Under the pieces are notes generated by a model. It had not been told where the DNA came from. It did no database searches and saw only the letters and a program-made list of their open reading frames with translations. 64,000 nt of DNA, taken from positions 1 through 64,000 of the IMG/VR virus record IMGVR_UViG_3300032269_001670. One strand, given 5' to 3'. Shown in pieces: positions 4,797 through 25,612 of this stretch (its first letter is position 1; each line of letters opens with the position of its first letter). A program made the translations under genes and the position numbers. The stretch is from a virus. Lineage: Duplodnaviria > Caudoviricetes.

Positions 4797-5192
4797 ATGA
4801 AGTCTGTCTCACGCTTTATGCACTACGTCGAAATCAACCAGGCCAACGGCTGCTGGGAGTGGACCGGCGCCTTTGACCGGAGTGGGTATGGTGCATTCAA
4901 GGATCAGGGCAAAAAAATAAATTCGCACCGGTGGAGCTACCGTCATTTTAAGGGCGAGCCACCGAAGGGGTTGGACATCGATCACCTCTGTCGCATCAGG
5001 AAGTGTGTCAGCCCAGAGCATCTAGAGGCAGTCACGCGAAAAGTCAACGTCCAGCGTGGTCTTGCTGCGCAGGAGCGAAAAACCCACTGCATTCATGGAC
5101 ACGAATATACGCCAGAGAATACGTACCGATATCCGAGTGGCGGACGTGAGTGTCGGACGTGCAAGTATGATGGTGGACGCATTCCGGAGTAG
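4797..5192 (+). CDS. HNH homing endonuclease-like protein
   Basis: CWEWTG...SHRWSY...IDHLCRIRKCVSPEHLEAVT..N, C-terminal THCIHGHEYTPENTY..CRTC; TGn-TATACT 6 nt before ATG (leaderless). Confidence 0.85.
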   Translation: MKSVSRFMHYVEINQANGCWEWTGAFDRSGYGAFKDQGKKINSHRWSYRHFKGEPPKGLDIDHLCRIRKCVSPEHLEAVTRKVNVQRGLAAQERKTHCIHGHEYTPENTYRYPSGGRECRTCKYDGGRIPE

Positions 5193-5257
5193 CTCAGTGG
5201 TAGAGCGGGCGACTGTTAATCGCCTGGTCGTAGGTTCGAGCCCTACCTCCGGAGCCA
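5183..5257 (+). tRNA. tRNA-Asn (GUU)
   Basis: TCCGGAG/CTCCGGA acceptor stem, CT-GTT-AA anticodon loop, GGTTCGAG T arm, encoded CCA. Confidence 0.95.
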
Positions 5258-5778: not shown

Positions 5779-5828
5779 TTCGTTTCTCCCTTCGTCGGTT
5801 CGGGTCTGTGCCTACCCCCGACACATAG

Positions 5829-5856
5829 AGAATAGCGCAACCACGGCAGGAGTCAA
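5829..5856 (-). promoter_or_regulatory. sigma70-type promoter
   Basis: TTGACT-N16-TATTCT. Confidence 0.7.
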
Positions 5857-7545: not shown

Positions 7546-7596
7546 TGTGTACCCCTTTCGTCAGGGCGGGTCTGTGCCGACAACCCCAACACCGAA

Positions 7597-7625
7597 AGAC
7601 TACATCGACAGACGGGCAGCGTCAA
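7597..7625 (-). promoter_or_regulatory. sigma70-type promoter
   Basis: TTGACG-N17-TAGTCT. Confidence 0.75.
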
Positions 7626-8728: not shown

Positions 8729-9040
8729 TCAGTTGTCGAGGTCATCACCGAACTGGTAGCCGCACGGCTCGCAGTAGTCGCCCGACCAGCCAGCCATCGC
8801 GTCGCACTTGGGGCAAACGCCCGAGGTGCTCATCTCGGTACAATCGACCCAGGCTGAACGCTCGTCATCGAGCAGGAACTCCCGCGCATCGTCGGCGGTG
8901 TCGGCGTTGTACGCCGCCAACTCCGAAGCCAGCGCAATCAGGGCTGCCGTTGCCTCTGACCGGCCAGCGTGCCACGAGCGGTGCGTCTCGTTCTCCCAGA
9001 CCACCTCGACCAGCCAGAGCGTCTTCTCCGTGTCCGTCAT
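8729..9040 (-). CDS. hypothetical protein with C-terminal zinc ribbon
   Basis: 103 aa from ATG at 9040; CPKC-x9-CEPC. Confidence 0.75.
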   Translation of the reverse strand: MTDTEKTLWLVEVVWENETHRSWHAGRSEATAALIALASELAAYNADTADDAREFLLDDERSAWVDCTEMSTSGVCPKCDAMAGWSGDYCEPCGYQFGDDLDN

Positions 9041-9083
9041 TTCTGTTCTCCTCTCTGTACTACCGGCAACTGCCGGCACCCGA

Positions 9084-9113
9084 AGTATACGCGGCCGGTC
9101 GCGGTCAGCGCAA
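9084..9113 (-). promoter_or_regulatory. sigma70-type promoter
   Basis: TTGCGC-N18-TATACT. Confidence 0.75.
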
Positions 9114-9124
9114 GTCCGAACCAT

Positions 9125-9360
9125 AGAGGAGAGAGAAGGGAGAGAGAGGAGAGAGAGTAGAGAGAAGTAGTTCTTGGGGTGTGGGGTATGGGGTAATGAT
9201 GAATGAATGATGAATGAGTGAATGATGAACTGGTGAATGATGAATGACGCTGACCGAATCCCGGTGAGCGTCGAGCTACGACCGAATGGAACGACGGACG
9301 GAGTGGCCTAGTTCTTGGGGTCTGTGGTGTGGGGTCTGGGGTCTGGGGTCTGGGGTGAAT
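9125..9360 (+). repeat. spacer: (GA)n tract, TAGTTCTTGGGG twice, TGAA repeats, (TCTGGGG)n
   Basis: GA-rich 9125-9166; TGAA/TGA 9196-9247; five GGGG at 9317-9355. Confidence 0.9.
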
Positions 9361-9380
9361 AATAGCCTGATGAATAGCAC

Positions 9381-9422
9381 CAACAAAAAGACCCCACCCC
9401 CGAAGGGGTGAGGCCTTTGTTG
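9381..9422 (-). terminator. intrinsic terminator (cassette F)
   Basis: CACCCCCGAAGGGGTG core with U-tract on minus strand. Confidence 0.8.
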
Positions 9423-9440
9423 CCCGTTCGCCGGCAGCGT

Positions 9441-9824
9441 TCAGAAGGGAGCGGCTTCCTCGTTCTGCTCGGTGTAGGCCTTGCGCGCCATCGTCCGCAT
9501 CTTGCGGATAGTGCGCTCATAGCGAGCACTGCTCTGCTGGTAGCACGAGGCCACCCACTCCATCAGTTCGGCGTCGGTCGTCCACTCCCAGAAGTCGAGA
9601 GGGAGAACGCCGAGGAGCGGGGCGGCATCGCCACCCTGCCAGAGGTGAACCTCGTTCACGGGCGCAGCCATCCCGTAGAGGATGGCCTCATAGCGGATCG
9701 CCTCGCCGTTGCCCGAATCCCGGCGAACGACCACCGACCGCTGCCAGAGCGAACCGCTGCGCTCGCCTTCCTGCTCATCTCCGAGAACTACCGAGAGGGT
9801 AGCCTTCTCATTACTCTTGGCCAT
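9441..9824 (-). CDS. hypothetical protein
   Basis: 127 aa from ATG at 9824; RBS AGAGGAG. Confidence 0.75.
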   Translation of the reverse strand: MAKSNEKATLSVVLGDEQEGERSGSLWQRSVVVRRDSGNGEAIRYEAILYGMAAPVNEVHLWQGGDAAPLLGVLPLDFWEWTTDAELMEWVASCYQQSSARYERTIRKMRTMARKAYTEQNEEAAPF

Positions 9825-9874
9825 TGCTGGTCTCCTCTGTGCTCGTCGGTGGAGCATTGCCACCGAACACCCCA

Positions 9875-9903
9875 AGTTTACCGGCACACAGGCAACAGCG
9901 CAA
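9875..9903 (-). promoter_or_regulatory. sigma70-type promoter
   Basis: TTGCGC-N17-TAAACT. Confidence 0.75.
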
Positions 9904-9944
9904 CAGGCCACCAACCGAACGACGACCGAGCGGCCAGTCAGTCA

Positions 9945-10083
9945 GTTAGTTAGTTGGTTAGTTCGTGGGGGTGCGGGGGGAATGAGTGGGGAGTGAATGA
10001 GTAATGAGTGAATGATGAATGAGGCCTGAACTATTGGTGGGGGTGTGGGGGTGTGGGGGGTGCGGGGTGAAATGTTGCCCGTG
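9945..10083 (+). repeat. spacer: (GTTA/GTCA)n, TGAA/TGAG repeats, G-tracts
   Basis: Four G-tracts at 10039-10067; TGAAATGTTGCCCGTG at 10068-10083. Confidence 0.85.
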
Positions 10084-10102
10084 AAAAGCTCTGACGAAAT
10101 GA

Positions 10103-10137
10103 TGAGGCCGCCACCCCCGACGGGATGACGGCCTCGG
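10103..10137 (-). terminator. terminator-like hairpin (cassette G)
   Basis: GAGGCCG...CGGCCTC stem; weak U tail. Confidence 0.6.
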
Positions 10138-10151
10138 TTCCGGTCGGACGA

Positions 10152-10643
10152 CTAGCAGCCGCCGATGCTCTTATCCTCAACCTGCTCCTCGCCGCCGATC
10201 ATCCACGACACAAGGCGGGTGAGGTTCACCTCGCGGTGGCCGTGGAACGCGGCGCGCTTCTCGCACGCACTACCCACAACTCCCGCGTACTCGCACGCCG
10301 TAGTCCAGCCGTACTCGGTCGGAGCCGACAGCACCAGATTGACGCACGGCTCACCCTTCTTGGTGATGTACACGCCGAGCGGGTGGACATCGCGGTTTAC
10401 CTGACCCGCAACGCGGAACAGGAACGACACGCGCCCCTTCTCATCAACCACCTGCTCGCCCGTGGTCTGAACGCGACCAAGTGCGCGGTGGGTAGCAGCA
10501 CGAGCAGCGGCCTTCTTGGCGCGCTCCTCAAACTGCTTCTTGGTGGTCGGCGCGCTCCACGCCGTCAGCACGACGATCTTACCGCCGGACTTCTTCGCCG
10601 CTTCTACGGCCTTCTCGTACGACATCCCCTTTGGTTCAGTCAT
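10152..10643 (-). CDS. hypothetical protein, paralog of 6091-6555
   Basis: 163 aa; shared blocks EAAKKSGGK.VVLT.W, RVAGQ.NRD.H.LGV, CEYAG..GSAC.KRA.FH.HR.VNLTRLVSW; ends in GC. Confidence 0.85.
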   Translation of the reverse strand: MTEPKGMSYEKAVEAAKKSGGKIVVLTAWSAPTTKKQFEERAKKAAARAATHRALGRVQTTGEQVVDEKGRVSFLFRVAGQVNRDVHPLGVYITKKGEPCVNLVLSAPTEYGWTTACEYAGVVGSACEKRAAFHGHREVNLTRLVSWMIGGEEQVEDKSIGGC

Positions 10644-10688
10644 AGGTTCCTTCTCCCTACTACTTCATCGGCAAGTGCCGACAGGTAC

Positions 10689-10717
10689 AGGTTAGCCCAT
10701 CAGACAGACGAACGCAA
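10689..10717 (-). promoter_or_regulatory. sigma70-type promoter
   Basis: TTGCGT-N17-TAACCT. Confidence 0.7.
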
Positions 10718-10744
10718 CCGCGACGCGCCAGACGCAACGCAGCC

Positions 10745-10834
10745 GGTCAGTCAGTCTGGGGTGTGGGGTATGGGGTGTGGGGTATGGGGGCGGTATAAAC
10801 CCGCAGTAATAGGCCGCCTGAAATGTTGCCCGTG
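10745..10834 (+). repeat. spacer: (TNTGGGG)x5
   Basis: TCTGGGG TGTGGGG TATGGGG TGTGGGG TATGGGGG at 10755-10790. Confidence 0.9.
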
Positions 10835-10850
10835 TAAAGCTGTACAAAGA

Positions 10851-10892
10851 GAGAGGCCGCCACCCCCGCACAGATGGGAGCGACGGCCTCGG
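10851..10892 (-). terminator. intrinsic terminator (cassette H)
   Basis: GAGGCCG...CGGCCTC stem with pyrimidine tail. Confidence 0.7.
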
Positions 10893-10909
10893 AGCCGAAC
10901 CGGAGAGGC

Positions 10910-11377
10910 CTAGCGGTAGTCGCTCGGCATCACCGGATTGTGGAGTGAGTCAATCCACACCGCGCCAATAAGCGGCGTATCCAAGAGCGTAGACTCAATG
11001 GCCTCAAAGACCTCGGCAGCGATAGGCGACGACTCGCCACCGGTAGCGTCTACGAAGTTAGCGAACGCGACCGGATCGCCGGAGAAGATCGCCGCCTGAG
11101 CGATAGTGATGGTCTTCCACGAATCAGCCTCGTAGTATGACCAGAACGAGCCGCCGGTCTCGTCGTCAGCCCAGCCAATCAGCACCGCAAGAGCGGTGCC
11201 GTAGGTTGGCACATAAGCGATGAGGTCGTCGCCGTCGCCGTAGCGAACATAGGCGCGATAGGCCGCGTCAGCCGGTAGCGTCTGGCGGCAAGCAGGGCAG
11301 ACACCCTGCGACTGGTTGCCGAGGTACTTCTGAACCCACTTCGTCGCCGGAGTGGTCTGGTCAGTTGCGTTGCTCAT
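10910..11377 (-). CDS. hypothetical protein with CxxC
   Basis: 155 aa from ATG at 11377; RBS AGGAAGGAA. Confidence 0.75.
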   Translation of the reverse strand: MSNATDQTTPATKWVQKYLGNQSQGVCPACRQTLPADAAYRAYVRYGDGDDLIAYVPTYGTALAVLIGWADDETGGSFWSYYEADSWKTITIAQAAIFSGDPVAFANFVDATGGESSPIAAEVFEAIESTLLDTPLIGAVWIDSLHNPVMPSDYR

Positions 11378-11426
11378 CTGTTCCTTCCTTCCTGTGCCTG
11401 TGCCGTTGCCAAGTGGCAACAGGTAC

Positions 11427-11455
11427 AAGGTAAGGCCTACCGCGCCAGAAGTCAA
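11427..11455 (-). promoter_or_regulatory. sigma70-type promoter
   Basis: TTGACT-N17-TACCTT. Confidence 0.75.
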
Positions 11456-11563
11456 ACGCCGTTGCGGAGAGCGCAACCGGTAGCGGGTGAGATGTCGCTC
11501 GTGGGGTGTGGGGTGCGGGGTCGCCGGTACAGGTACGGCCTGAATAATGAACTGATAACAACA

Positions 11564-11607
11564 CAAAAAAAAGAGGCCGCCCCCGGCACAGATCGGGGAC
11601 GGCCTCG
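11564..11607 (-). terminator. intrinsic terminator (cassette I)
   Basis: GAGGCCG...CGGCCTC stem followed by T8 on minus strand. Confidence 0.85.
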
Positions 11608-11626
11608 TAGATAACCGGAGCGACGA

Positions 11627-11995
11627 CTACATCGGGAACCCGCCGAACTCTAACGCCTTGATGATGGCGGCGAGTTCGTCCTCGGTGAAACCGCGCAGCT
11701 CGTCGTCGTGAACGAGTGAGCACGTACCGACAAGTCCATCACCGAACAGGTACGCCGGCGCGGACTTAGTAGCGAGAGCCAGAACATCAGACGCGGTGAG
11801 GTTCACGGCCGGCTCAGACTTGAGCAGTCCCTCCTCGTCGGCAATGAGCGCAACCGGCACGCCGCCGATCTTGCCGGAGCCGACTACCTCGACCATCTCG
11901 CACTCAGTCGCAGCGTAGAGGCCGGCGAGTCCCTGACCACGAGCGACGACGGACACCTTGCCCGGAGCAATCCTGAGAACCTGTGAGTCGTTCAT
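11627..11995 (-). CDS. DUF3846-like protein
   Basis: 122 aa; VEVV...LIADEEGLLKSEPAVN..AS...LVG...GFTEDE pattern. Confidence 0.65.
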   Translation of the reverse strand: MNDSQVLRIAPGKVSVVARGQGLAGLYAATECEMVEVVGSGKIGGVPVALIADEEGLLKSEPAVNLTASDVLALATKSAPAYLFGDGLVGTCSLVHDDELRGFTEDELAAIIKALEFGGFPM

Positions 11996-12041
11996 TGTTT
12001 CCTTCCTTTCCTGTGCTTCATCGGGAAGTCCCGACACAGAG

Positions 12042-12069
12042 AGAATACATTACCCACGCCGGAAGTCAA
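12042..12069 (-). promoter_or_regulatory. sigma70-type promoter
   Basis: TTGACT-N16-TATTCT. Confidence 0.7.
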
Positions 12070-12166
12070 CACCCCCCCCCTAAGGCCGGCCTGTCCAAGT
12101 CGAGCGTGTAGCTGGGGGCGTGGGGGGTTGGGGGGTCTGGTACAGGTACGGCCTGATAAATGACCC

Positions 12167-12209
12167 AAAGAAAAACCCCCTCACAGATGCCCGTCTGCGA
12201 GGGGGTGTT
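12167..12209 (-). terminator. intrinsic terminator (cassette J)
   Basis: ACCCCCTC.CAGA...TCTG.GAGGGGGT with TTTTTCTTT tail. Confidence 0.85.
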
Positions 12210-12236
12210 AGACCGGCGGAAAGGATCGCCGGCGTA

Positions 12237-12518
12237 TTATTCGGGGCGCACGAAACGGCCTTCCTCTCCGTTCTCCATCAAGACGAAGTCGGCAAGATGA
12301 CGCGCGATAGCCTCAGCGTCATCATCACGACCAAGCACCGGATAGCCGGCGGTACAACCCTGCGAGTAGTGGTAGCCGTCAAGGTCAAGCTTCCACAGCG
12401 TTCCGCCAAAGTTCACGCCGTCCTCGCTCATCAGCGCGACCCACGACTCGGAGTCAAGGTCAATGCGAAGGTATCCGGCCTCGTCCATCTCGTAAGCCTC
12501 AGTTCCGGTAAGTGCCAT
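12237..12518 (-). CDS. hypothetical protein
   Basis: 93 aa; RBS GAGAGGAGAGG. Confidence 0.7.
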   Translation of the reverse strand: MALTGTEAYEMDEAGYLRIDLDSESWVALMSEDGVNFGGTLWKLDLDGYHYSQGCTAGYPVLGRDDDAEAIARHLADFVLMENGEEGRFVRPE

Positions 12519-12533
12519 TTGTCCTCTCCTCTC

Positions 12534-12707
12534 TCAACCTGCCGGCGCGCACATCGCGTCGGTACAAGGCCAGCCTAGCAGAACCGCGACCAATGCCGCA
12601 AGTGCCGCAAGATACAATGCGCGACGGAGCAGCTGCTCGCGTCGCTGCTGCCGAACCCACGCCTCAGTTTCGCGCAGGTATTCGGCCTTCGTAATCAAAC
12701 TACGCAT
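12534..12707 (-). CDS. small single-pass membrane protein
   Basis: 57 aa from ATG at 12707; hydrophobic ALYLAALAALVAVLLG. Confidence 0.6.
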   Translation of the reverse strand: MRSLITKAEYLRETEAWVRQQRREQLLRRALYLAALAALVAVLLGWPCTDAMCAPAG

Positions 12708-12942
12708 TATCGTTCTCCTCATCAAGCGGATACCCTGCCGACTCCAAGAGGTAGACCGCGCACTCCGCAATCGCGCTCTTATAGTCGCCGAAGGTAGCGC
12801 GCTCTCCGGGGTAGAAGTCGTCAAACGCAATGTCGGGCAGGTCATCAGCCGAGAGGCCAACCTTCACCTCAACCTTGCGCGATACGGCCTCAATGAACTT
12901 CTCAAAGGGAAGCTCAATCATCTCGTTCACATCACGGCTCAT
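12700..12942 (-). CDS. hypothetical protein
   Basis: 80 aa; RBS GAAGGAAGGAG. Confidence 0.7.
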   Translation of the reverse strand: MSRDVNEMIELPFEKFIEAVSRKVEVKVGLSADDLPDIAFDDFYPGERATFGDYKSAIAECAVYLLESAGYPLDEENDNA

Positions 12943-12984
12943 CAGATACTCCTTCCTTCCATACCGGCAAGTGCCGGCTACGCC

Positions 12985-13014
12985 AGACTACACCCGACGC
13001 TAGGCCTGAGTCAA
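12985..13014 (-). promoter_or_regulatory. sigma70-type promoter
   Basis: TTGACT-N18-TAGTCT, overlapping the 3' end of the upstream ORF. Confidence 0.75.
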
Positions 13015-13221
13015 GGCCTCAGTTGGGTCAAACACATCAGGCCGGCCTTCTGCCACCCAAGCGTCAAGCTCCGTGCGCCACTTGTACGGCCGCTCAATGA
13101 GGTCAAGCAACAAGTCGCATCGGTCATTGGTCTCCGCATACTCCGCATACCCGCCGTGAACCATTGCGCGAGCAAACGCCAACACATCAGATTCGTCGTA
13201 AGGCCAATCAAATCGCCCCAT
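13000..13221 (-). CDS. hypothetical protein
   Basis: 73 aa from ATG at 13221; RBS AGGAAGGA. Confidence 0.65.
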   Translation of the reverse strand: MGRFDWPYDESDVLAFARAMVHGGYAEYAETNDRCDLLLDLIERPYKWRTELDAWVAEGRPDVFDPTEALTQA

Positions 13222-13360
13222 TATCTCGTCCTTCCTGTACGCCAATCTCCTCTAAGGCCGATACCTGAGCGTCAGCAAAGCACTCCGCACAGATACGCGA
13301 TTCGTACTGCCGGTCGTCCTCTACTTCACTCCCGCACCAAGAACAAGCGTTCCTACTCAC
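13208..13360 (-). CDS. small zinc-finger-like protein
   Basis: GTG start after AAGGAG; CSWC...CAEC. Confidence 0.55.
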   Translation of the reverse strand: MSRNACSWCGSEVEDDRQYESRICAECFADAQVSALEEIGVQEGRDNGAI

Positions 13361-13721
13361 CCGATACTCCTTCCTTATGAGCCGCATACTCATCGGCTAC
13401 CCTACGAGCATACTGCTTGGCTTCCTCAAAGTCAATCAGCACTTCGCCGTCCTCGTTCTCCCCCCAGACGACCTCGAACCACGGATTATGCGCCCACTCA
13501 ATCAGGCCGCTCTCCTCGGCAGCGGCGAGCTTCTCGTCGGTATCAAGCCCCTTCTCGTCAAGGTCGCTCGTGTACCGGAGAATACTGGTTTCACCAGACG
13601 GCTCTCGGTAGACAACGCGCATCTCTCCGGCTCGGTACACAACGACTTCCTTGTCGGCGGTGAACCATACTGGGTCAGAATCGTGGTACTGCGTAAAGAA
13701 GGCCGCGTCGTTCCTGCTCAT
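13353..13721 (-). CDS. hypothetical acidic protein
   Basis: 122 aa; start overlaps upstream stop. Confidence 0.65.
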   Translation of the reverse strand: MSRNDAAFFTQYHDSDPVWFTADKEVVVYRAGEMRVVYREPSGETSILRYTSDLDEKGLDTDEKLAAAEESGLIEWAHNPWFEVVWGENEDGEVLIDFEEAKQYARRVADEYAAHKEGVSGE

Positions 13722-14026
13722 TAGTTCCACCCAACTTCCTGCCACGCGACAAAGCACTCGTCGCACAAATCCACCGACTCCTCATAGGCGTTCTCATAGC
13801 CGTTCCACCCGTAGCTGAAAGGCCGCGCCTTCACTCCTGCGTGCGACCACTCAGGCCACCGGTTCGCGTTCTCGCAAGTGCGGAACTCATCAAGGCCGTT
13901 GTTGTTCTGGTGCGTACCATCGCCGCAATCAACGCAAGTACCACCAGACAACGGAACCTCACAACCGCAACGGCACGAGCAGGTACTCTCCTGCGGGTCG
14001 CCAACCGGAATCTCAAACAAGTCCAT
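13721..14026 (-). CDS. Cys-rich hypothetical protein
   Basis: 101 aa from ATG at 14026; CSCRCGC, CVDC, CDEC. Confidence 0.7.
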   Translation of the reverse strand: MDLFEIPVGDPQESTCSCRCGCEVPLSGGTCVDCGDGTHQNNNGLDEFRTCENANRWPEWSHAGVKARPFSYGWNGYENAYEESVDLCDECFVAWQEVGWN

Positions 14027-14069
14027 CTGTCCTCTCCTTCCACTACACCGGCAATCACCGGTACAACGA

Positions 14070-14098
14070 ACACTACACCCAACGATTCCTGTCGTCAA
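14070..14098 (-). promoter_or_regulatory. sigma70-type promoter
   Basis: TTGACG-N17-TAGTGT. Confidence 0.75.
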
Positions 14099-14103
14099 GT
14101 ATG

Positions 14104-14538
14104 AAGGGGAGCCGACCAGACACCACATCTGGCCGACCCCCCCAGCTTTCGCGCTACTGACGCTTATCCCCTTTCACAGAGGCAACCTTCGGCTCTCGCC
14201 TGATTGCTGATACCGGCCACCCTGATGGTTAGTCCAAATGCCCCGTATCTTTATCGTCGCGGGCAGTTCGTCTATCTGCCAACTATCCGGCCTCTACCCG
14301 GAACGGATTCATTATGTCCCGGAACCCCTGAGAGCCGTCGCTCCCAGAGATTCCGGTAGGTTGGTCGCTTCCACCGGTATTGGCCATAGCCCCGGCTTCC
14401 GCTTCCCAAGCTTCCTCTCCCGCATTTACAGCAGCGATTAGAGGCCATCACTCGCCTGAACCACTTCGCATTTTTTGGCTGCGTGCTTTGTTCCTAACAC
14501 TCTCACCTAGTCGTCGCGTTCCTAGGATTGCTCCGACA
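14104..14538 (-). ncRNA. candidate large structured non-coding RNA (about 430 nt)
   Basis: No minus-strand ORF of 60 aa or more; promoter TTGACG-N17-GAAACT at 14544-14572; many hand-folded hairpins, several with GNRA loops; long 3' hairpin. Confidence 0.55.
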
Positions 14539-14668
14539 TACGAAGTTTCTCACACCGGTATCACCTCGTCAAGTAAGTTGCGGATAAGGTTTGTGTAAGG
14601 TATCTTAACTATTGGGGGTTTGGGGGTTGCGCCGGTATACGGCCTGGATAATGAATAAGTCGAGCTAC

Positions 14669-14707
14669 AAAGAAAAACCCCCGGTGGGAGGACTCCACCG
14701 GGGGGAT
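14669..14707 (-). terminator. intrinsic terminator downstream of the RadC-like gene
   Basis: CCCCCGGTGG...CCACCGGGGG with TTTTTCTTT tail. Confidence 0.85.
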
Positions 14708-14747
14708 AGGACTCGTGGGGAGGAGGACACCCCCCTACGAGTCGTAG

Positions 14748-15242
14748 CTAGTTCAGGGTGCTGTCCTCAAACATACTCGGCTTCTGTGAGCGGATACTCG
14801 TGAACGCTCCGTTCGCTCCGACGACCAGATGGTCAAGGAACTGAACATCAAGCAGCGTGGCGGCCTTCGCCACATCAGCCGTAAGCCTAATGTCCTCATC
14901 AGACGGCTGATGGTCGCCCGAAGGGTGATTGTGAACCAACGCCAGACCGACCGCGCCCATCATCAGCGCAGAGCGGAGCAGTTCGCCAATCCGCACCGAA
15001 GTTCCGGTCGCCGTACCAGAGTAGATACGATGAATCCCAAGCAGGTTGTTGCGCCCACCGAACGACACGACGAACAAGGCCTCACTCATCTCCGCGTCAG
15101 CGAACTCGCGGAACAGAGCCGCAAGGTCGCGTGGACTCGTGATGACCGCCGACTTGTTGCTGCGTGAGGTGCGCTTCACCGAATACTCATAGGCGTTCCA
15201 CATACCAGTTTCGGCAATGCTATTAGCCTTCCTCTTTGCCAT
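14748..15242 (-). CDS. RadC-like JAB/MPN domain protein
   Basis: ITSPRD, EALFVV, VHNHPSGDHQPSDEDIRLT, LDHLVVG. Confidence 0.9.
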   Translation of the reverse strand: MAKRKANSIAETGMWNAYEYSVKRTSRSNKSAVITSPRDLAALFREFADAEMSEALFVVSFGGRNNLLGIHRIYSGTATGTSVRIGELLRSALMMGAVGLALVHNHPSGDHQPSDEDIRLTADVAKAATLLDVQFLDHLVVGANGAFTSIRSQKPSMFEDSTLN

Positions 15243-15250
15243 AAGTCCTC

Positions 15251-15595
15251 CTAGTAATCCTTGACGAGAATCTTTTTGTCCTCGTTCTCTGGCAACTCTA
15301 CCACCAATCCGTAGTAGTCGCAATACTGCTTGATGAGGTCGAGTGCGCGATGCCCACCAGACCACCCCAGATAGCACTCATCTGAGTCGGTATCGCGGTT
15401 CTGGTCGTGGTAAAAGAAATACACCGGATCGCTAATGTTGTCCGCATCAGCCATCAGACTAAGCTCCGCTGCGGTACAGGTATTACAGCACCACCGACCA
15501 ATCTTTTCTGGCCCATACACATAAGCCTCGGTGTCGCGGAACATCGTCATCAGAAGGTCGTCTAACGAATCCCAGAAGTCAATGTACGGCCTCAT
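15251..15595 (-). CDS. hypothetical protein (possibly DUF6891-like)
   Basis: 114 aa; FFYHDQ...YLGW...GLVVE...KILV. Confidence 0.6.
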   Translation of the reverse strand: MRPYIDFWDSLDDLLMTMFRDTEAYVYGPEKIGRWCCNTCTAAELSLMADADNISDPVYFFYHDQNRDTDSDECYLGWSGGHRALDLIKQYCDYYGLVVELPENEDKKILVKDY

Positions 15596-15795
15596 CAGTA
15601 AGTCCCCTCTCCGCCGCAGCCACACTCGCCCTCGTAGCAGGTTGCCCCTTCCGAAAGCAGCATCGCGCAGCCATACTTCTCGGAGCGGTGTTCCTCGCAC
15701 GGATCGCAGTACCACTGAACGATACCGGAAGCGTTGTTATCAGCCCAATAGCCGTTCTCTACGACCTGCTTACAGGTGTCGCATTGCGTTCCCAT
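15595..15795 (-). CDS. small Cys-rich protein
   Basis: 66 aa; CDTC, CDPC, CYEGECGC. Confidence 0.65.
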   Translation of the reverse strand: MGTQCDTCKQVVENGYWADNNASGIVQWYCDPCEEHRSEKYGCAMLLSEGATCYEGECGCGGEGTY

Positions 15796-15843
15796 TGTCC
15801 TCTCCTCTCCTACTAGCTAGATAGCCGAACCCGGCTACGCCTA

Positions 15844-15872
15844 ACACTAAACGATAAACGCAGCCGGGTCAA
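15844..15872 (-). promoter_or_regulatory. sigma70-type promoter
   Basis: TTGACC-N17-TAGTGT. Confidence 0.75.
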
Positions 15873-15875
15873 ACC

Positions 15876-16385
15876 CTACTTCTTGGCGAGCATCCCCTCA
15901 ATGCGCTCGGTCATCTTGCGCTCCTGATCCAGCAGGAACCACGGCTCCACAATCGCGGAGTGCGTATAGGTGCGCTGGCCTGAGAGCCGGAACATCTTGC
16001 CGCCAACGAACTCCCACTTCCAGAAGTCGCCGTCCTCGCCCTGCCACTCGTAGTCGCCATCCTCAATGAACGGCGCAGCAGCCGCGAAAAACACTTCTTC
16101 CTGACCAATCTTGTTCTCGTAGCAGGTGATCACGAGATCGCCATTGCTATCGTCAATGATCGTCTCAAAGCCGAGCGCAACGAATACGGCCTGTGTATCA
16201 GGGAGCGTTCGCAAGTCCTGTGGCATCCACGAGAACCACGAAGAAGTCCTTTCCCCGCCGCCGTATGATCCGCCACGCTTCGCGTTATCCGGAGCTTCTT
16301 GAAGCGCCATCATTGCCTCATACGCCTTGCCAAGATTTTCCGCCTTGATACGAAGGCTTCCGTTTCCTGAAATGTAGTATCCCAT
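15876..16385 (-). CDS. hypothetical protein
   Basis: 169 aa from ATG at 16385; RBS GAAGGAGTAGGA. Confidence 0.75.
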   Translation of the reverse strand: MGYYISGNGSLRIKAENLGKAYEAMMALQEAPDNAKRGGSYGGGERTSSWFSWMPQDLRTLPDTQAVFVALGFETIIDDSNGDLVITCYENKIGQEEVFFAAAAPFIEDGDYEWQGEDGDFWKWEFVGGKMFRLSGQRTYTHSAIVEPWFLLDQERKMTERIEGMLAKK

Positions 16386-16429
16386 TGTCCTACTCCTTCC
16401 TACTTCCTCACGGCAAGTGCCGCAGAGCA

Positions 16430-16458
16430 ATACTAATCTAGTGCGTTGTATCGGTCAA
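16430..16458 (-). promoter_or_regulatory. sigma70-type promoter
   Basis: TTGACC-N17-TAGTAT. Confidence 0.75.
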
Positions 16459-16702
16459 GTACGCGAATCCAATGGTCGGTGCGGGTGTGCCGGTCAATGA
16501 GCGTGTACTTGATGCCAAGCTCCCCAAGAGAGCGCACGAGCAATGATGCGTCAGCATCCTCCTCCAAGAACAGGCGGTCGTCCTTCTGGTACGAGTACGA
16601 ACTGATAAGCCCCTGAATGCCGAGCATCTCTACAAGCTCGCGCTTCACCTCGAGCCATCCGTGCGATGGGTCGTGGTGATAAGTGATAACCAAGTCCTCC
16701 AT
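16433..16702 (-). CDS. conserved-looking hypothetical protein
   Basis: HDPSHGWLEV...ISSYSY...FLEEDADA; RBS TAGGAGG. Confidence 0.75.
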   Translation of the reverse strand: MEDLVITYHHDPSHGWLEVKRELVEMLGIQGLISSYSYQKDDRLFLEEDADASLLVRSLGELGIKYTLIDRHTRTDHWIRVLDRYNALD

Positions 16703-16775
16703 AGAACCTCCTACCGGCTCGTAAGCCGCAATACATACACGGTCAGAAGCCCGACCAGCAACCAGAATAGCACGA

Positions 16776-17219
16776 TCACAATACTTCGCAACCCTTCAGG
16801 TCGGAGCAGATGTGAAGGTATTCCTGCCAATGGCGAACTTCCTCAATCCACCCCTGAACCTCACCATCCTTGTCGATAAGAAACTGCGCTCCGTCGTATT
16901 CCTTCATAGCCTCAATCACCGCCGCGCGAATCTCAAGGTCATCCTTCTTGGCAAGAATCTCCCAAGCATCAAAGCACTCCCAATCACGGATGACCGTACC
17001 GGAGTTATCCCACAAGGCCTCATTGAGAAAGGCCACGCCAAGAAGCTCGTTGAGCTTGCGAAGGATACCCATACCGCCAATGTTCATCCGGTAATAGGCC
17101 GTGTTGCGCCAATAGTCCGGAGCTTCGTCGTTGTCGCCAAAAATCCACGGCGTTGCCTTCTTAGCAAACGCTAGCGACTTCTCCCTGTCCTCGCGCATAG
17201 AGTAAATGTCGTAGCCCAT
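16776..17219 (-). CDS. hypothetical protein
   Basis: 147 aa; MGYDIY...AYYRMNIGGM; RBS TAGGAGG. Confidence 0.75.
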   Translation of the reverse strand: MGYDIYSMREDREKSLAFAKKATPWIFGDNDEAPDYWRNTAYYRMNIGGMGILRKLNELLGVAFLNEALWDNSGTVIRDWECFDAWEILAKKDDLEIRAAVIEAMKEYDGAQFLIDKDGEVQGWIEEVRHWQEYLHICSDLKGCEVL

Positions 17220-17261
17220 ACTTCCTCCTACAACTTCCTACCGGAAAGCTCCGGCAGAGCG

Positions 17262-17291
17262 AGCATACACCCTCCCTACCGGAGTCGTCAA
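17262..17291 (-). promoter_or_regulatory. sigma70-type promoter
   Basis: TTGACG-N18-TATGCT. Confidence 0.75.
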
Positions 17292-17295
17292 GCAC

Positions 17296-17553
17296 CTACG
17301 CGCGCACCTTGCTGGCCTCGTACCGAGTGGACATCGCAAGCTTCTGTTCGTCTGACCAAGGCGGAACCTGATAGTCAAGCGGTTTGCGTGATTCCTCGTA
17401 CGCCCAGTCAATCCATCCTGAAAGCTCCACGAGATCGCGGTTCTCCCTGATGTATCGACGGATGCGCTTGCTGTATGCCGTATGACGCTCTAATGCCTTG
17501 CGGAACCGGACATACGCCCGGTAATCGTCCTCGGTATACAGCTGATCACTCAC
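17296..17553 (-). CDS. hypothetical protein
   Basis: 85 aa; GTG start overlaps upstream stop. Confidence 0.6.
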   Translation of the reverse strand: MSDQLYTEDDYRAYVRFRKALERHTAYSKRIRRYIRENRDLVELSGWIDWAYEESRKPLDYQVPPWSDEQKLAMSTRYEASKVRA

Positions 17554-18002
17554 TTCACTGACCTCCGTACCGGCTGAACTCCGGCCCGACGAAGCACGGT
17601 GTTGATGTATTGCGCGCTGACATCGTAGCTCTTGCCGATGAGCACAAGACGCTCACCGGCGCGATACCGGGTGACGACATCCTGTACGGCATCAGTAGTG
17701 AACTTCGTGCGCTTGCTCGTCGAAAGGCCAGCCGTAAAGAGTGCGTTCCTGATCGTGCTAGTCGAGCAGTTGAACTTCTTTGTGGCCTCAGTAAGTGTTG
17801 GCGAGTGTTCGCGGTAATACGACACGATCTCGTCGTAGTCATACTTGCGAAGCCGCGTGCTATTCAGAATCGGCGGACGATTGACGCCCATCTTTGCGAC
17901 GATCTGCTGAACCCGCTGTCGGGTGATGCCGTACTTTTCCGCGACGGACTGGAGTGTCATGCCACTAAGGTAATCAGTGGCAATGAGATTATTTCGTTCC
18001 AT
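17550..18002 (-). CDS. multi-HTH DNA-binding protein
   Basis: Three HTH-like repeats: TLQSVAEKYGITRQRVQQIV, TLTEATKKFNCSTSTIRNAL, RLVLIGKSYDVSAQYINTVL. Confidence 0.75.
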   Translation of the reverse strand: MERNNLIATDYLSGMTLQSVAEKYGITRQRVQQIVAKMGVNRPPILNSTRLRKYDYDEIVSYYREHSPTLTEATKKFNCSTSTIRNALFTAGLSTSKRTKFTTDAVQDVVTRYRAGERLVLIGKSYDVSAQYINTVLRRAGVQPVRRSVK

Positions 18003-18130
18003 TGCTCTCTCCTGTGAACAATACTGGGAGACGCCCAGCTCGTACGATAACTCTACTGACAGATGTACCATGTCAATCGGTAGAACCTATCGCTATTTCC
18101 TCTTGGGGTGCGGGGTTAGACAATCCGGGA

Positions 18131-18385
18131 ATGACATACTTTGTCGTGTATAAGCCCGGAAAACCTGATACTTGGCACATCACCTCGAGTGCCGGGTTCT
18201 ACGACGTTGCCACTACGCCAACCGAGGCCCTACAAATGATTAGCTCTGACGCTGAGAAACAGCAACCCGGCAACGACGACATTGAGTTTGCCGTCCGGTG
18301 GATCAACACCCCAGATGGATTCCTGGCTCCTGGGGAGGATGATCTTTCGGTGGATCTTCCGGCGGAGTCTTCTCTCCCAAACTAG
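18131..18385 (+). CDS. hypothetical protein, opposite strand to the array
   Basis: 84 aa from ATG at 18131; weak RBS. Confidence 0.4.
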   Translation: MTYFVVYKPGKPDTWHITSSAGFYDVATTPTEALQMISSDAEKQQPGNDDIEFAVRWINTPDGFLAPGEDDLSVDLPAESSLPN

Positions 18386-18433
18386 TGAGTTTTAGAATCC
18401 ATCCTATGAATGCTATGGCGTAGAGCGTTTCGA

Positions 18434-18784
18434 TCACGCCAAGATACCCTCTTGATCCGCACTCTGGCGAAGGTGGTCCATGTATTCCTTCGCTGGCTCG
18501 TCGTACGAAAAGATGCTGACGTTTGCGCCGCGCATCCCCTCAATCCACCCAACAACAACCTGTCCGTGTCGCTCATGGCTGACGAACGGCTCGCCCTGAA
18601 GGGCGATGTACAGGGTGTCATCCGCAAGGTTATCCGAAGCTCCGGCAAGAGCCTCATACAAGGCCGTCCTACCGAACACCCCATCCACCTGCGGGTAGAT
18701 GTCGGAGTAGACAAACTCCTCGCCTGCTCCAACAATCTCGTCAATGGTGTTGCCGTCAATGTACGCGCTGTATACCGGCTTCAT
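18434..18784 (-). CDS. hypothetical protein
   Basis: 116 aa; RBS GTAGTAGGAGG. Confidence 0.7.
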   Translation of the reverse strand: MKPVYSAYIDGNTIDEIVGAGEEFVYSDIYPQVDGVFGRTALYEALAGASDNLADDTLYIALQGEPFVSHERHGQVVVGWIEGMRGANVSIFSYDEPAKEYMDHLRQSADQEGILA

Positions 18785-18786
18785 AC

Positions 18787-19584
18787 TCAACCTCCTACTA
18801 CGCCGCCAAAGTTCTCATCGCAGAACGACTCGAAGGCGGTCATTGGAATCGTATCATAGTCGCGCTCGTAGCTACGCGAGCCATCCTCCTCCTTGTACCA
18901 CGCCTCGTCTGGGAGAGAGTCGTGCTCGCTGCTGTATTCCTGCCGTGAGATTTCGTTGCCCGAGTGATACATCACCTCACCCGCAAAGCCCATACCCGCC
19001 TCACAATAGCGATGCGAAATGGTCAGCGTCGGGAACAGCCCAGAGAGCTCGTGAGCCACAGGCTCCGCAGGACTCCACGCCGTCTCAAAGTTATACGAGG
19101 TGCGACCATCAGTAGCAAGGTCGTCGGCGCGGTCGTTCCACACCTCACCGCAGTTCCACTTCGTCCCCCAGTTGGCAACATTCCAGTTGTACCACCAGTC
19201 GGGGTGCGACGAAATCTCGCCGAGCTTGTGCGTCGGGCAGACCGATGAACCGCCGAATCCGGCAGCAACAAAGTCCTTGATCGTGCCGTTGTCGAGCACT
19301 TCCTTCTCAATGAGTAAGCCGTTCACTTCCCAATGGCCTTCAGCCTTCTCGAAGCCGTCCTCGCCCCACTCGCCGACCTGCGGCTTCGTCTCAACCCAAA
19401 CCTTCTGACAGCCGCACTGGAAGTCATTCTGCGTCTCTGCCGCAGCATAGATAGGGCTATCCGGTGGCGGCACAATCTTGGCAAAGTCGAAGTCGCCGTT
19501 CTCTCCCTTTACTAACGCAATGAGCCGGACGATCTCTGCCTCATCGCCCGTGATGTCCAGTTGATTTACGCACCAGTTTGGCAT
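18787..19584 (-). CDS. YubB/DUF1281 ferredoxin-like domain protein
   Basis: MPNWC.N.L.ITG, FDFAKIVP.P, WY.WNVANWGTKWN, FETAWSP, YCEAGMGFAG. Confidence 0.8.
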   Translation of the reverse strand: MPNWCVNQLDITGDEAEIVRLIALVKGENGDFDFAKIVPPPDSPIYAAAETQNDFQCGCQKVWVETKPQVGEWGEDGFEKAEGHWEVNGLLIEKEVLDNGTIKDFVAAGFGGSSVCPTHKLGEISSHPDWWYNWNVANWGTKWNCGEVWNDRADDLATDGRTSYNFETAWSPAEPVAHELSGLFPTLTISHRYCEAGMGFAGEVMYHSGNEISRQEYSSEHDSLPDEAWYKEEDGSRSYERDYDTIPMTAFESFCDENFGGVVGG

Positions 19585-19624
19585 ACTTTCTCCTACACTT
19601 CCTTACTCCAAGTGGAGTGGTACT

Positions 19625-19653
19625 ACCTTATCGTCTATGTGCTTGCGTGTCAA
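19625..19653 (-). promoter_or_regulatory. sigma70-type promoter
   Basis: TTGACA-N17-TAAGGT. Confidence 0.8.
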
Positions 19654-19934
19654 GCGTGCCGGTGGGCCTCTACAAAATCGCAGCCTGGCAAGAAGCACCA
19701 CCCCTCATCACGAGCTTGCTTGTCCGACATAAATGGCGGATGGAATTCACACTCACACGGAGCGCAGTCCAAGCAGTAGACGAGATAGCCGTCTGGCACA
19801 CTTCCCTCATACAGCTCGAAGTCAAGCACATCGAAGCGCGTGTACGGCATACCATTCCAAGTGCCGATGACCTTCTCGTCGGCGTAGAACACCATGTCTC
19901 CGCACGCAATACACTTATCCATCTGGCCGCTCAT
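19650..19934 (-). CDS. Cys-rich hypothetical protein
   Basis: 94 aa; CIAC, CLDCAPCEC. Confidence 0.6.
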   Translation of the reverse strand: MSGQMDKCIACGDMVFYADEKVIGTWNGMPYTRFDVLDFELYEGSVPDGYLVYCLDCAPCECEFHPPFMSDKQARDEGWCFLPGCDFVEAHRHA

Positions 19935-20476
19935 GATGCCACCTGCGCGTAGCGAATCATCGCGTCGGCTTCGGCATCTGCCTGATCGTAGCCAATGATG
20001 CCGCCCAACGACTCAACAATCTCCCAAGTGTTCTCGTGCGAATCAACGCCGCAGCTCACTGACTTCTCCAAGATGACGCAATAGACTTCACCGCGAAGCA
20101 CGGAGTCTACGACGCTAATCTCGGACTCGGCCTTCGCCGCAAGCTCCTCCTCGGTATACGAATCACCGAGCCAGAACTTCGCCTGATCCTTCTCAATCAC
20201 ATAGAAGCCAATCTGCGCGGAGTCCCACTTATCGGTGAACGGCGTAAGGCTGATGCTCATGCCGGAGTGCGAGAAGCCGTAGACCTTGTGAACATACACC
20301 GCATCTGCCGGTGGCGTGAAGGTGGCGACATTTTCGTCATCCACCGAAAGCTTGACATCCCACGGGAAGCCGTAGTTCGCGGCCTTCTCGCCGGTATAGA
20401 ACTGACCTGCGCGGTCGCCAAGGACATCGTAGCCGTCGGCTGTGTCCTGCTCAATCCTCGTCCTGTACTTATCCAT
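19931..20476 (-). CDS. hypothetical protein
   Basis: 181 aa; HSG.SIS..PF.DKWDS.QIGF; RBS TAGGAGG. Confidence 0.75.
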   Translation of the reverse strand: MDKYRTRIEQDTADGYDVLGDRAGQFYTGEKAANYGFPWDVKLSVDDENVATFTPPADAVYVHKVYGFSHSGMSISLTPFTDKWDSAQIGFYVIEKDQAKFWLGDSYTEEELAAKAESEISVVDSVLRGEVYCVILEKSVSCGVDSHENTWEIVESLGGIIGYDQADAEADAMIRYAQVAS

Positions 20477-20515
20477 ACTGCCTCCTACAACAATACGGCA
20501 ACTGCCGTGCTAACG

Positions 20516-20544
20516 ATACTAATGTGTCGGTATTGTCCTGTCAA
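20516..20544 (-). promoter_or_regulatory. sigma70-type promoter
   Basis: TTGACA-N17-TAGTAT. Confidence 0.8.
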
Positions 20545-20814
20545 CTACCTATCGGCGACCTGAAAGATGAGACGACCGCCACCATTCATCTCGTCGTCCG
20601 CCGAGACAATCACCTCGAACTTGTCGCCGTGAATGTCCTCAATAATAAAAACCGGGAATGGTGGGAAATAATCGTCGCCTTCCTCAACCCGGCCACCAAT
20701 AATCCGCGCGCCGCGCAGCGGCTCAAGCATCTCACTGATGATGTAATGAACTTCCCGATCCTCTGGCAGAAGCTTCTCGCGCTCCTTCACCAGTGCGTCA
20801 TGATCGACTGCCAT
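20545..20814 (-). CDS. hypothetical protein
   Basis: 89 aa; RBS TAGGAGG. Confidence 0.7.
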   Translation of the reverse strand: MAVDHDALVKEREKLLPEDREVHYIISEMLEPLRGARIIGGRVEEGDDYFPPFPVFIIEDIHGDKFEVIVSADDEMNGGGRLIFQVADR

Positions 20815-20823
20815 AATTTCCTC

Positions 20824-21012
20824 CTACTGCTGTGCTACCGGCACAACGATCTCGTCCTCGGGTGAGAACTGATCGACCGGAGCGAGTTCTGCGGTATACA
20901 CTACCTCGACGCCATACGGCGTGTCAAGTAGGGTAGGCCAATCCCAGTTTGCCGGATGATCTGCGCGCTCGTCCACTTCGATAGACAAGCTCACCAAGTA
21001 TGTTCGCGCCAT
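20824..21012 (-). CDS. hypothetical protein
   Basis: 62 aa; RBS TAGGAGG. Confidence 0.7.
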   Translation of the reverse strand: MARTYLVSLSIEVDERADHPANWDWPTLLDTPYGVEVVYTAELAPVDQFSPEDEIVVPVAQQ

Positions 21013-21045
21013 AACTTCCTCCTACACTACACGGCAACTGCCGTA

Positions 21046-21246
21046 CTACTGAGTATCTTCTTCTGGTGTCATCCTGTCAAGTACAAAGGCAAACCGAAAG
21101 GGCGTCTTGCTCCTGGGCTTGTGGGCGGCCTTACACTCCTCGCATACCCACGCGCCGTTCGGGTCTGGTACAAGTGTGTGCCTGATGTTATTCGGGCAGG
21201 TTGGCCACTTGCCTGACTCCCACGAGCTAGTTCGTTTCCGGCTCAT
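21046..21246 (-). CDS. small zinc-ribbon-like protein
   Basis: 66 aa; CPN...CEEC. Confidence 0.5.
   Translation of the reverse strand: MSRKRTSSWESGKWPTCPNNIRHTLVPDPNGAWVCEECKAAHKPRSKTPFRFAFVLDRMTPEEDTQ
21052..21080 (-). promoter_or_regulatory. sigma70-type promoter
   Basis: TTGACA-N17-GATACT. Confidence 0.65.
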
Positions 21247-21852: not shown

Positions 21853-22173
21853 CTATGGCTGCTGAATCGTAGATTCGCAGTATACCAGACCATACGATTC
21901 GGGGTCGTGGCCAATGCGGGTCTCAAGCTTCAGGGCCGGCATCTCTACCTTCCTAATGCTCTCGCCACAGTCATGGCACCTGATCTCGGTAATGTCTGGG
22001 TAGCTATACTCCTCCGGGTTTGACTGAACGGCAATCTGCGCTCGCTCACCTTCGCCGATGATAGAGCAGACAACCTCGAGCAGTCCATAGAAGTAGATGC
22101 CATCCCACCATTCATTCGACGCCCGGGACTTCCCGGAGCACCCCTTATGGAGATAGGTCTTAAACGTGCTCAT
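21853..22173 (-). CDS. hypothetical protein
   Basis: 106 aa; CHDC; start overlaps upstream stop. Confidence 0.6.
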   Translation of the reverse strand: MSTFKTYLHKGCSGKSRASNEWWDGIYFYGLLEVVCSIIGEGERAQIAVQSNPEEYSYPDITEIRCHDCGESIRKVEMPALKLETRIGHDPESYGLVYCESTIQQP

Positions 22174-24335: not shown

Positions 24336-24737
24336 ATGACGAAGAAGAAGGTGATTACCGCCGACGACGTGCGAGAGATGAAGGCCATGCTTGACATGGT
24401 GAACTTGTCGTCTCTTGATAAACCATACGGGGAAGATAACGAAGCAACGCTAGGAGATCTAGTCGAGTCCCCGGGGCCATCCCCAGAGGAGCTTAGTCTC
24501 ACGTCTGATATGGTGCGCCTCATTCACGAGATGCTTGAAAGCCTTCCCGACCGGGATCGAGACATCCTTTGTATGCGCTACGGGATCGGCCTGAATCGCC
24601 CAATGACGATGGAGGAGGTAGGCCAAAAGTACAACCTGAGCCGTGAGCGCGTCCGCCAGATTGAAAATGCCGCGCTGACAACGCTCCGGCACCCGAGCAG
24701 GATGCGAAAAATGCGTGCATATTCGGTGGCAGGATGA
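24336..24737 (+). CDS. sigma70 region 3.2/region 4-only protein
   Basis: SLDKPYGEDNEATLGDLV...LPDRDRDILCMRYG...TMEEVGQKYNLSRERVRQIENAALTTLRHPSR; region 2 absent. Confidence 0.9.
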   Translation: MTKKKVITADDVREMKAMLDMVNLSSLDKPYGEDNEATLGDLVESPGPSPEELSLTSDMVRLIHEMLESLPDRDRDILCMRYGIGLNRPMTMEEVGQKYNLSRERVRQIENAALTTLRHPSRMRKMRAYSVAG

Positions 24738-25570: not shown

Positions 25571-25612
25571 GCAGAAAGCGGGGATGTCCCGCCTAGTAGT
25601 AGGAGGTAATAA

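Follow-up and report, generated by a model that had tools for sequence, protein, structure and literature searches.

Short hairpins at the very start of a message, as in the ompA leader of E. coli and the T7 gene 10 leader, stabilize bacterial and phage mRNAs. Together with the 5' stabilizers of Bacillus, these elements consist of a short stable hairpin that abuts the 5' end of the transcript, with an accessible ribosome site behind it; they act in cis and leave the stem sequence free. Here, a hairpin that, by its predicted start site, resembles them in all these respects is described from the early genes of an uncultured freshwater phage. It carries a conserved R-N-U-U tetraloop (RNUU; R, A or G) and stands between a sigma-70-type promoter and the ribosome-binding site. 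It differs from known 5' stabilizers in being a repeated, family-wide module, found at dozens of promoters per phage lineage, and in its conserved loop, which stabilizers do not need. The window, i.e. the whole stretch of DNA analyzed (64,000 nucleotides, nt), is the first 64 kb of IMG/VR record IMGVR_UViG_3300032269_001670, which is a virus sequence of 85.7 kb in a single contig and carries direct terminal repeats.

Among described cassette arrays, the closest are those of the PeSL elements of the T4-type phages RB49/phi1, PST and nt-1 (PMC2839356, PMC4122927). As in the present phage, small and mostly unknown early genes are arrayed there, each with its own strong sigma-70-type promoter and stem-loop, and cassette boundaries coincide with the promoter/stem-loop elements. 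The PeSL stem-loop, however, lies upstream of the -35 box and terminates transcription (PMC4122927), whereas here the hairpin lies 6–7 nt downstream of the -10 box and termination is left to separate UUCG terminators. The SAS/ESAS of Cluster K mycobacteriophages (PMC3203893) are likewise repeats in one orientation, which directly precede the start codons of some of the genes. By contrast with ESAS, which are 17-bp inverted repeats of conserved sequence with a variable spacer (PMC3203893), the arms of the present element vary and its centre is conserved. What is specific in the present case is the conserved RNUU loop together with the predicted flush 5' position.

A first-pass annotation of this DNA had listed 12 such hairpins, and their coordinates, stems and loops were all verified on the minus strand of the window (Table 1). 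Stems contain 5–6 pairs in 11 of the 12, predicted stabilities range from -5 to -8 kcal/mol and no hairpin is followed by a U-tract. All 12 lie, as had been proposed, between a -10 box and a ribosome-binding site: -35 and -10 boxes separated by 16–18 nt are found upstream, 6–7 nt separate the -10 box from the stem, and a Shine-Dalgarno-like site begins 6–14 nt 3' of the stem, followed by an ATG. The -35 box is of the TTGAC type in 10 cases and TTGCG in two, and the -10 box is of the TAnnnT type except for one GATACT. In most of the 12 predicted leader folds the Shine-Dalgarno site is unpaired. Chance was assessed with 200 first-order-Markov (approximately dinucleotide-preserving) shuffles of the window. 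RNTT tetraloop hairpins with at least 5 Watson-Crick pairs were observed 10 times on the minus strand versus 2.3 per shuffle, and composites of promoter and hairpin 10 times versus 0.03 per shuffle, with none on the plus strand. A chance origin of the window hairpins is excluded. A plus-strand hairpin, CCGGG-ACUU-CCCGG at 22119–22140 (18.8 bits with the covariance model described below), lies inside the minus-strand gene 21853–22173, has no promoter nearby and is probably due to chance. In comparisons with Rfam, two tRNAs alone reached the gathering score in the window, and nothing overlapped the hairpins at E ≤ 1 between 8900 and 22600.

Compensatory change in the stems had also been claimed and was borne out. 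In an alignment of the 12 copies 97% of the cells are paired and all six pairs change on both sides; the covariation score was reached by none of 500 shuffles, and the signal was lost when the partner was slid by 1–3 columns.

Conservation was analyzed in 31 related IMG/VR loci, on contigs of up to about 90 kb, retrieved with a 265-amino-acid (aa) early protein. Upstream of the orthologues of this protein the stem takes at least seven forms (e.g. ACUCC, GCGGG, CAGGG, UGGC, GUCC), and at this same position the loop is ACUU, GCUU, AGUU or GAUU, replaced by GAUGU in three loci; in two loci the promoter is absent altogether. Sense-strand units were then collected from this genome and its relatives by promoter and Shine-Dalgarno site, with no hairpin required, and 233 non-redundant ones were obtained. 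Of these units, 132 (57%) contained a tetraloop hairpin, defined by at least 4 Watson-Crick pairs and a loop starting 9–15 nt after the -10 box. The corresponding values were 3.7% for randomly chosen positions of the same DNA and 1 of 23 for the antisense strand. The tetraloop was RNUU in 121 of the 132 (ACUU in 55, GCUU in 40, AGUU in 16). The distance from hairpin to Shine-Dalgarno site was 8–12 nt, and that from hairpin to AUG 20–24 nt.

A covariance model built from the 12 window copies alone was used for the search of related phages that the first-pass annotation had called for. In 381 kb of relatives it gave 87 matches at E ≤ 1, and 83 of these lay on the sense strand. The same model had no match in 194 kb of unrelated loci sharing merely a distant homologue of the 265-aa gene. 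In the aligned matches 98.5% of the cells pair and 114 cells are double-changed, versus 33.5 in shuffles, although fitting this alignment to the model inflates pairing. When the records of five relatives (four at least 90% complete) were searched whole, most matches fell in one early region of 8–15 kb on one strand; one record had two adjacent, converging clusters. An exact search of IMG/VR with the promoter plus GGCACTTGCC returned 36 stretches, many in contigs already known as relatives. Relatives 88–95% similar were also present in a single freshwater metatranscriptome (X1, share 0.08), kept as strandless contigs. The promoter-hairpin element is family-wide: more than 100 distinct promoters carry it in this lineage of uncultured freshwater phages.

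The strand on which the fold acts was indicated by the stem base, where the first position without a Watson-Crick pair showed G-U in 96 units and A-C in 19; unique hairpins alone gave 65:9. Since G-U and A-C each arise by one transition, the 5:1 bias is explained just by selection for pairing in the sense strand, and the excess of G-U means that the fold acts in that strand, pointing to RNA. A hairpin in the template DNA strand would predict the opposite bias and a cruciform none. The earlier proposal of an RNA structure, and not a sequence-specific DNA operator, was supported by this tolerance of G-U over A-C and by the wholesale replacement of stems around a loop that is retained and non-palindromic. 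A dimeric-repressor operator was rejected, given arms without conservation around a conserved but non-palindromic centre.

These observations also bear on whether the inverted repeat acts as DNA, either as a hairpin or cruciform promoter for a phage polymerase, with a start site about 11–15 nt downstream of the loop, or as a hairpin in the non-template strand during initiation; we regard this as highly improbable. The virion-polymerase promoters of N4 and LUZ7 are, like the present element, short GC-rich hairpins with a variable stem and a conserved loop before early genes (PMC4496689, PMC3715699, PMC9163698). N4-like phages have DNA hairpins with stems of 5–7 bp and 3-nt loops, and in LUZ7 nine early start sites are of this kind and middle promoters have loops of 3–4 nt (PMC4496689, PMC9163698). 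In the present DNA, purines are common 10–12 nt after the loop centre, as read from the sequence, and an open reading frame (ORF) of 3397 aa (G000 60520–70713, minus strand, partly in the window) has the size of a virion polymerase. This ORF prompted an N4-like reading, which was rejected after PHROG, Pfam, PDB and motif searches. Its product showed weak matches to tape-measure (TMP_3) and ddrB-ParB families, below Pfam cut-offs, had no match to any solved structure, solved N4 polymerase sequences included, or to any polymerase-annotated PHROG, and looks like a polyvalent tape-measure protein. Searches for PF00940, PF00623 (RNA_pol, Rpb1) and DFDGD-type motifs found nothing; of these searches the one for PF00940 is weak, its control having been found in 0 of 14 control genomes. 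As no phage RNA polymerase, whether T7/N4-type or multisubunit, was found, an N4-type promoter is unlikely. Moreover, N4 and LUZ7 promoters are template-strand DNA hairpins with 3-nt purine-centred loops, served by a giant virion polymerase and devoid of -35 and -10 boxes (PMC4496689, PMC3715699, PMC9163698), whereas the present hairpins have 4-nt loops and a sense-strand bias, and all 12 window copies stand at a fixed distance from a complete sigma-70-type promoter.

The position of the hairpin relative to the promoter was nearly invariant. From the -10 box to the first nt of the loop the distance is 11.6 ± 0.6 nt, the 7th nt after this box is a purine in 97 of 119 units (82%), and the 6th is mostly a pyrimidine. 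Start sites usually show such a purine preceded by a pyrimidine. With respect to the 7th nt, the first stem position is -1, 0 or +1, which places the predicted transcription start within 1 nt of the stem. A tight tie between hairpin and start is a requirement of 5'-end protection, and would not be required of a protein-binding site downstream. A distance to the -10 box that is almost constant, and one to the ribosome site that varies more but within narrow bounds, fit a 5'-terminal stem-loop.

We therefore consider, with some reserve, that the hairpin probably stands at the 5' terminus of the mRNA, where, as a stem-loop, it would block 5'-end-dependent decay and would insulate the ribosome site. 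The host RNA polymerase would initiate at the sigma-70-type promoter ahead of each hairpin, so that the hairpin would form the first 14–16 nt of the early mRNA. The nascent transcript would fold at once into a GC-rich stem-loop of 5–6 bp with 0–1 unpaired nt at its triphosphate end, to be followed by a purine-rich spacer of about 10 nt, the Shine-Dalgarno site and the AUG. The paired 5' end would bar enzymes that attack a message from a free 5' end: a pyrophosphohydrolase of the RppH type, RNase E with its 5'-monophosphate sensor, and RNase J, a 5'-3' exonuclease. Messages of the anti-defence type would persist longer, and the ribosome site would keep an identical, mostly unstructured context whatever gene follows. 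The first-pass annotation had likewise pointed to 5' stem-loops as protecting mRNA from decay; the promoter geometry fits a protective hairpin of this kind, the start itself being a prediction.

Some points weigh against this explanation. G-T wobble pairs also form in DNA, so that a DNA hairpin in the non-template strand is formally possible. Transcription starts are predicted only, and the sole RNA run with relatives, kept as contigs, shows no 5' ends. Finally, a stable stem is all that a stabilizer needs, whereas RNUU makes up 121 of 132 leader tetraloops and none of those in the neighbouring terminators.

This last point was pursued through the loop itself. Among the 132 tetraloops position 1 was R in 129, position 2 C in 98, position 3 U in 123 and position 4 U in 129. 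By contrast, of 63 terminator-like hairpins with a tetraloop, taken from the same DNA and strand, 17 had UUCG and none RNUU. The RNUU loop is thus under selection of its own, separate from that on the stem, and stability alone fails to explain the motif, since RNUU dominates the leaders while the terminators use UUCG. R at position 1 can always pair with U at position 4, but loops of the types G..C, C..G and U..A are absent, indicating that base identity in the loop matters, and not pairing alone. Each genome mixes ACUU, GCUU and AGUU loops. To our knowledge RNUU is not among the extra-stable tetraloops, and nothing relevant turned up when the literature was searched for bacterial or phage ACUU, GCUU or AGUU tetraloops. 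Pairing of the loop with a downstream AAGU-type motif was inspected by eye in the 12 copies and rejected as inconsistent for AGUU, GAUU and GGUU loops. The loop may be kept either because a particular tetraloop fold is favored at the 5' end or because something reads it.

In the second case, the hairpin would mainly be a binding site for a phage or host trans-acting protein that reads R-N-U-U and controls the tagged early messages together, by 5'-loaded antitermination like that of lambda N/boxB, translational control or timed shut-off. This is possible but rather doubtful as the main function, and it is compatible with 5'-end protection. The constrained loop among variable stems, its retention upstream of the same orthologous gene while the stem changes, its absence from terminators and its not being a known extra-stable loop, or one whose use in bacteria or phages turned up in the literature search, all speak for a reader; moreover, since each cassette at 9–12 kb ends in a strong terminator, control of read-through would have a target. 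However, no candidate emerged when 20 early and middle proteins were compared with Pfam and small basic or arginine-rich proteins were screened: the early proteins are mostly acidic and match no RNA-binding family. A protein-binding site would not demand so tight a spacing from the -10 box, and no boxA-like partner accompanies the hairpin. In the lambda nut sites, where N reads boxA and boxB, a hairpin with a 5-bp stem and a conserved loop also lies early in early transcripts, but boxB has a GNRA-like pentaloop, stands tens to hundreds of nt from the start beside boxA and occurs once per operon. The element described here has an RNUU tetraloop, with no conserved flanking box and no convincing arginine-rich early protein. 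Accordingly, of the earlier idea of a constrained loop with a specific reader, selection on the loop was substantiated (121 of 132 versus 0 of 63 terminators), whereas no reader protein was identified.

The list of 12 hairpins left out sister promoters of the same array that carry other 5' hairpins (Table 1). When G-U pairs were allowed, RNUU tetraloops were present in about 58% of early promoter units; 33% carried a different hairpin, and 7% lacked one. The first-pass annotation had gone on to propose, as an example, a phage protein that acts through the loop to license, stabilize or coordinately shut off all early mRNAs; with other loops at about one third of the sister promoters, such a universal licence is unsupported, and these exceptions, like the mixture of loops within genomes, also count against a reader. 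A restricted version can be put forward tentatively, in which RNUU would tag a subset of about 60% of the early messages, which a dedicated phage or host protein would control as a block. Its mode might be, equally tentatively, 5'-loaded antitermination through the cassette terminators or timed shut-off, and promoters with other loops, e.g. that of the sigma-4-like regulator gene, might then escape control.

Non-RNUU 5' hairpins are also borne by the promoters at 5856 and 7625 (minus strand). These two precede a longer leader hairpin (about 5810–5840 and 7580–7610, minus strand) that shares GGCACAGACCC and is found in relatives too (L024, at 19673 and 20360). Leaders of the GGCACAGACCC type are a second leader-hairpin family.

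Table 1. RNUU hairpins, their promoters, sister hairpins and terminators in the window; hairpins are written in mRNA sense.
Feature	Position	Strand	Remarks
Hairpin CCGGC-AGUU-GCCGG	9063-9076	-	covariance model 23.4 bits; -8.3 kcal/mol
Promoter TTGCGC-N18-TATACT	9084-9113	-	7-nt gap to stem; ATG 9038-9040
Hairpin UCGGC-ACUU-GCCGA	10668-10681	-	
Promoter TTGCGT-N17-TAACCT	10689-10717	-	7-nt gap; ATG 10641-10643
Hairpin GUUGCC-ACUU-GGCAAC	11405-11420	-	
Promoter TTGACT-N17-TACCTT	11427-11455	-	6-nt gap; ATG 11375-11377
Hairpin UCGGG-ACUU-CCCGA	12021-12034	-	
Promoter TTGACT-N16-TATTCT	12042-12069	-	7-nt gap; ATG 11993-11995 (DUF3846 protein)
Hairpin CCGGC-ACUU-GCCGG	12964-12977	-	
Promoter TTGACT-N18-TAGTCT	12985-13014	-	7-nt gap; ATG 12940-12942
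Hairpin ACCGGU-GAUU-GCCGGU	14047-14062	-	loop-adjacent pair is U-G
Promoter TTGACG-N17-TAGTGT	14070-14098	-	7-nt gap; ATG 14024-14026
Hairpin UAGCCG-GGUU-CGGCUA	15822-15837	-	
Promoter TTGACC-N17-TAGTGT	15844-15872	-	6-nt gap; ATG 15793-15795
Hairpin CGGC-ACUU-GCCG	16411-16422	-	4 pairs (5-6 counting flanking pairs)
Promoter TTGACC-N17-TAGTAT	16430-16458	-	7-nt gap; ATG 16383-16385
Hairpin CCGGA-GCUU-UCCGG	17241-17254	-	
Promoter TTGACG-N18-TATGCT	17262-17291	-	7-nt gap; ATG 17217-17219
Hairpin ACUCC-ACUU-GGAGU	19605-19618	-	
Promoter TTGACA-N17-TAAGGT	19625-19653	-	6-nt gap; ATG 19582-19584 (DUF1281_C/Api92-like protein)
Hairpin ACGGC-AGUU-GCCGU	20495-20508	-	
Promoter TTGACA-N17-TAGTAT	20516-20544	-	7-nt gap; ATG 20474-20476
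Hairpin ACGGC-AGUU-GCCGU	21031-21044	-	
Promoter TTGACA-N17-GATACT	21052-21080	-	7-nt gap; ATG 21010-21012; read by hand
Sister hairpin UCGGUGG-CAAUGCU-CCACCGA	9846-9866	-	other loop; after TTGCGC-N17-TAAACT; read from sequence
Sister hairpin CUGGG-CGUCU-CCCAG	18024-18038	-	other loop; 11 nt after TAGAGT; heads sigma-70 region-4-like helix-turn-helix gene 17550-18002
Sister hairpin GCGGG-GAUGU-CCCGC	25578-25592	+	7 nt after TTGACA-N18-TAGAAT
Strong intrinsic terminators closing cassettes	9385-9412, 10846-10892, 11570-11606, 12170-12210, 14670-14730	-	

Between about 22.5 kb and 5.3 kb the genes lie on the minus strand in a succession of small cassettes, each a self-contained unit of promoter, hairpin, gene and, in some, terminator. 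Homology blocks shared with the relatives L003, L006 and L015 are bounded by the -35 box (17291, 11455) or precisely by the edge of a hairpin (19617); the cassettes thus move as units. The same gene is headed by differing promoter/hairpin versions in different relatives; conversely, the GAUGU hairpin found on the plus strand of the window also heads the DUF1281_C gene in L017, L020 and L021, which indicates that promoter-hairpin heads are exchanged between genes. Genes such as 20824–21012 are replaced wholesale between relatives, a further instance of shuffling at the level of cassettes. All this could suggest that the hairpin serves above all to mark sites of recombination during cassette shuffling, as proposed for PeSL, and owes its conservation to spread by recombination. 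Such a role is very unlikely to be its main one: the stems vary too much to serve as substrates for homologous recombination, pairing is under selection in one strand, as compensatory change and the G-U bias demonstrate, no recombinase was linked to the element, and the PeSL stem-loop is a terminator upstream of its promoter (PMC2839356, PMC4122927).

The unit amounts to a compact and portable expression head for phage early genes, made up of promoter, flush 5' hairpin, spacer and ribosome site. It raises the question of why a non-canonical tetraloop is used at the 5' end of messages while terminators of the same genomes use UUCG. If a protein reads the loop, a new RNA-protein recognition pair would govern an anti-defence early regulon; if not, the data document a sequence preference of 5'-terminal hairpins, which could inform the design of synthetic mRNA stabilizers and the annotation of start sites in metagenomic phages.

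The genome encodes a terminase, a portal and tail fibres besides the large tape-measure-like ORF. Megablast of the region against GenBank phages gave no match, and all relatives of the terminase were below 30% identity, with no annotated close relative among GenBank phages. Products of the early cassettes include a DUF1281_C/Api92-like domain, RadC, DUF3846 and many acidic unknowns, as judged from Pfam and the protein screen, and look like early anti-defence proteins. A search of genome_contigs for the host with an exact 39-nt segment of tRNA-Asn gave no match. A host among the Latescibacterota was considered and not adopted, a sigma-region-4 fragment having given just pattern-limited matches of 40–49% to metagenome-assembled genomes.

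Genes for tRNA-Asn(GTT) and tRNA-Ile(TAT) lie on the plus strand at 5183–5257 and 4584–4659, respectively. The tRNA-Asn stretch reaches a depth of about 1850 in the freshwater metatranscriptome, with one C>T difference, presumably due to the cellular tRNA of an abundant organism. In the cassettes at 9–12 kb, a conserved CACGGGCAACATTTCA box and G-tract (GGGGTNT) plus TGAATGA repeats (9140–9360, 9930–10070 and 10740–10800, plus strand) sit between terminator and promoter. Two small proteins, encoded at 24336–24737 (plus strand) and 17550–18002 (minus strand), contain a sigma-70 region-4-type helix-turn-helix, one of them ending in an RpoD-like LRHPSR tail; it is possible that these proteins modify -35 recognition in a switch away from the early promoters.

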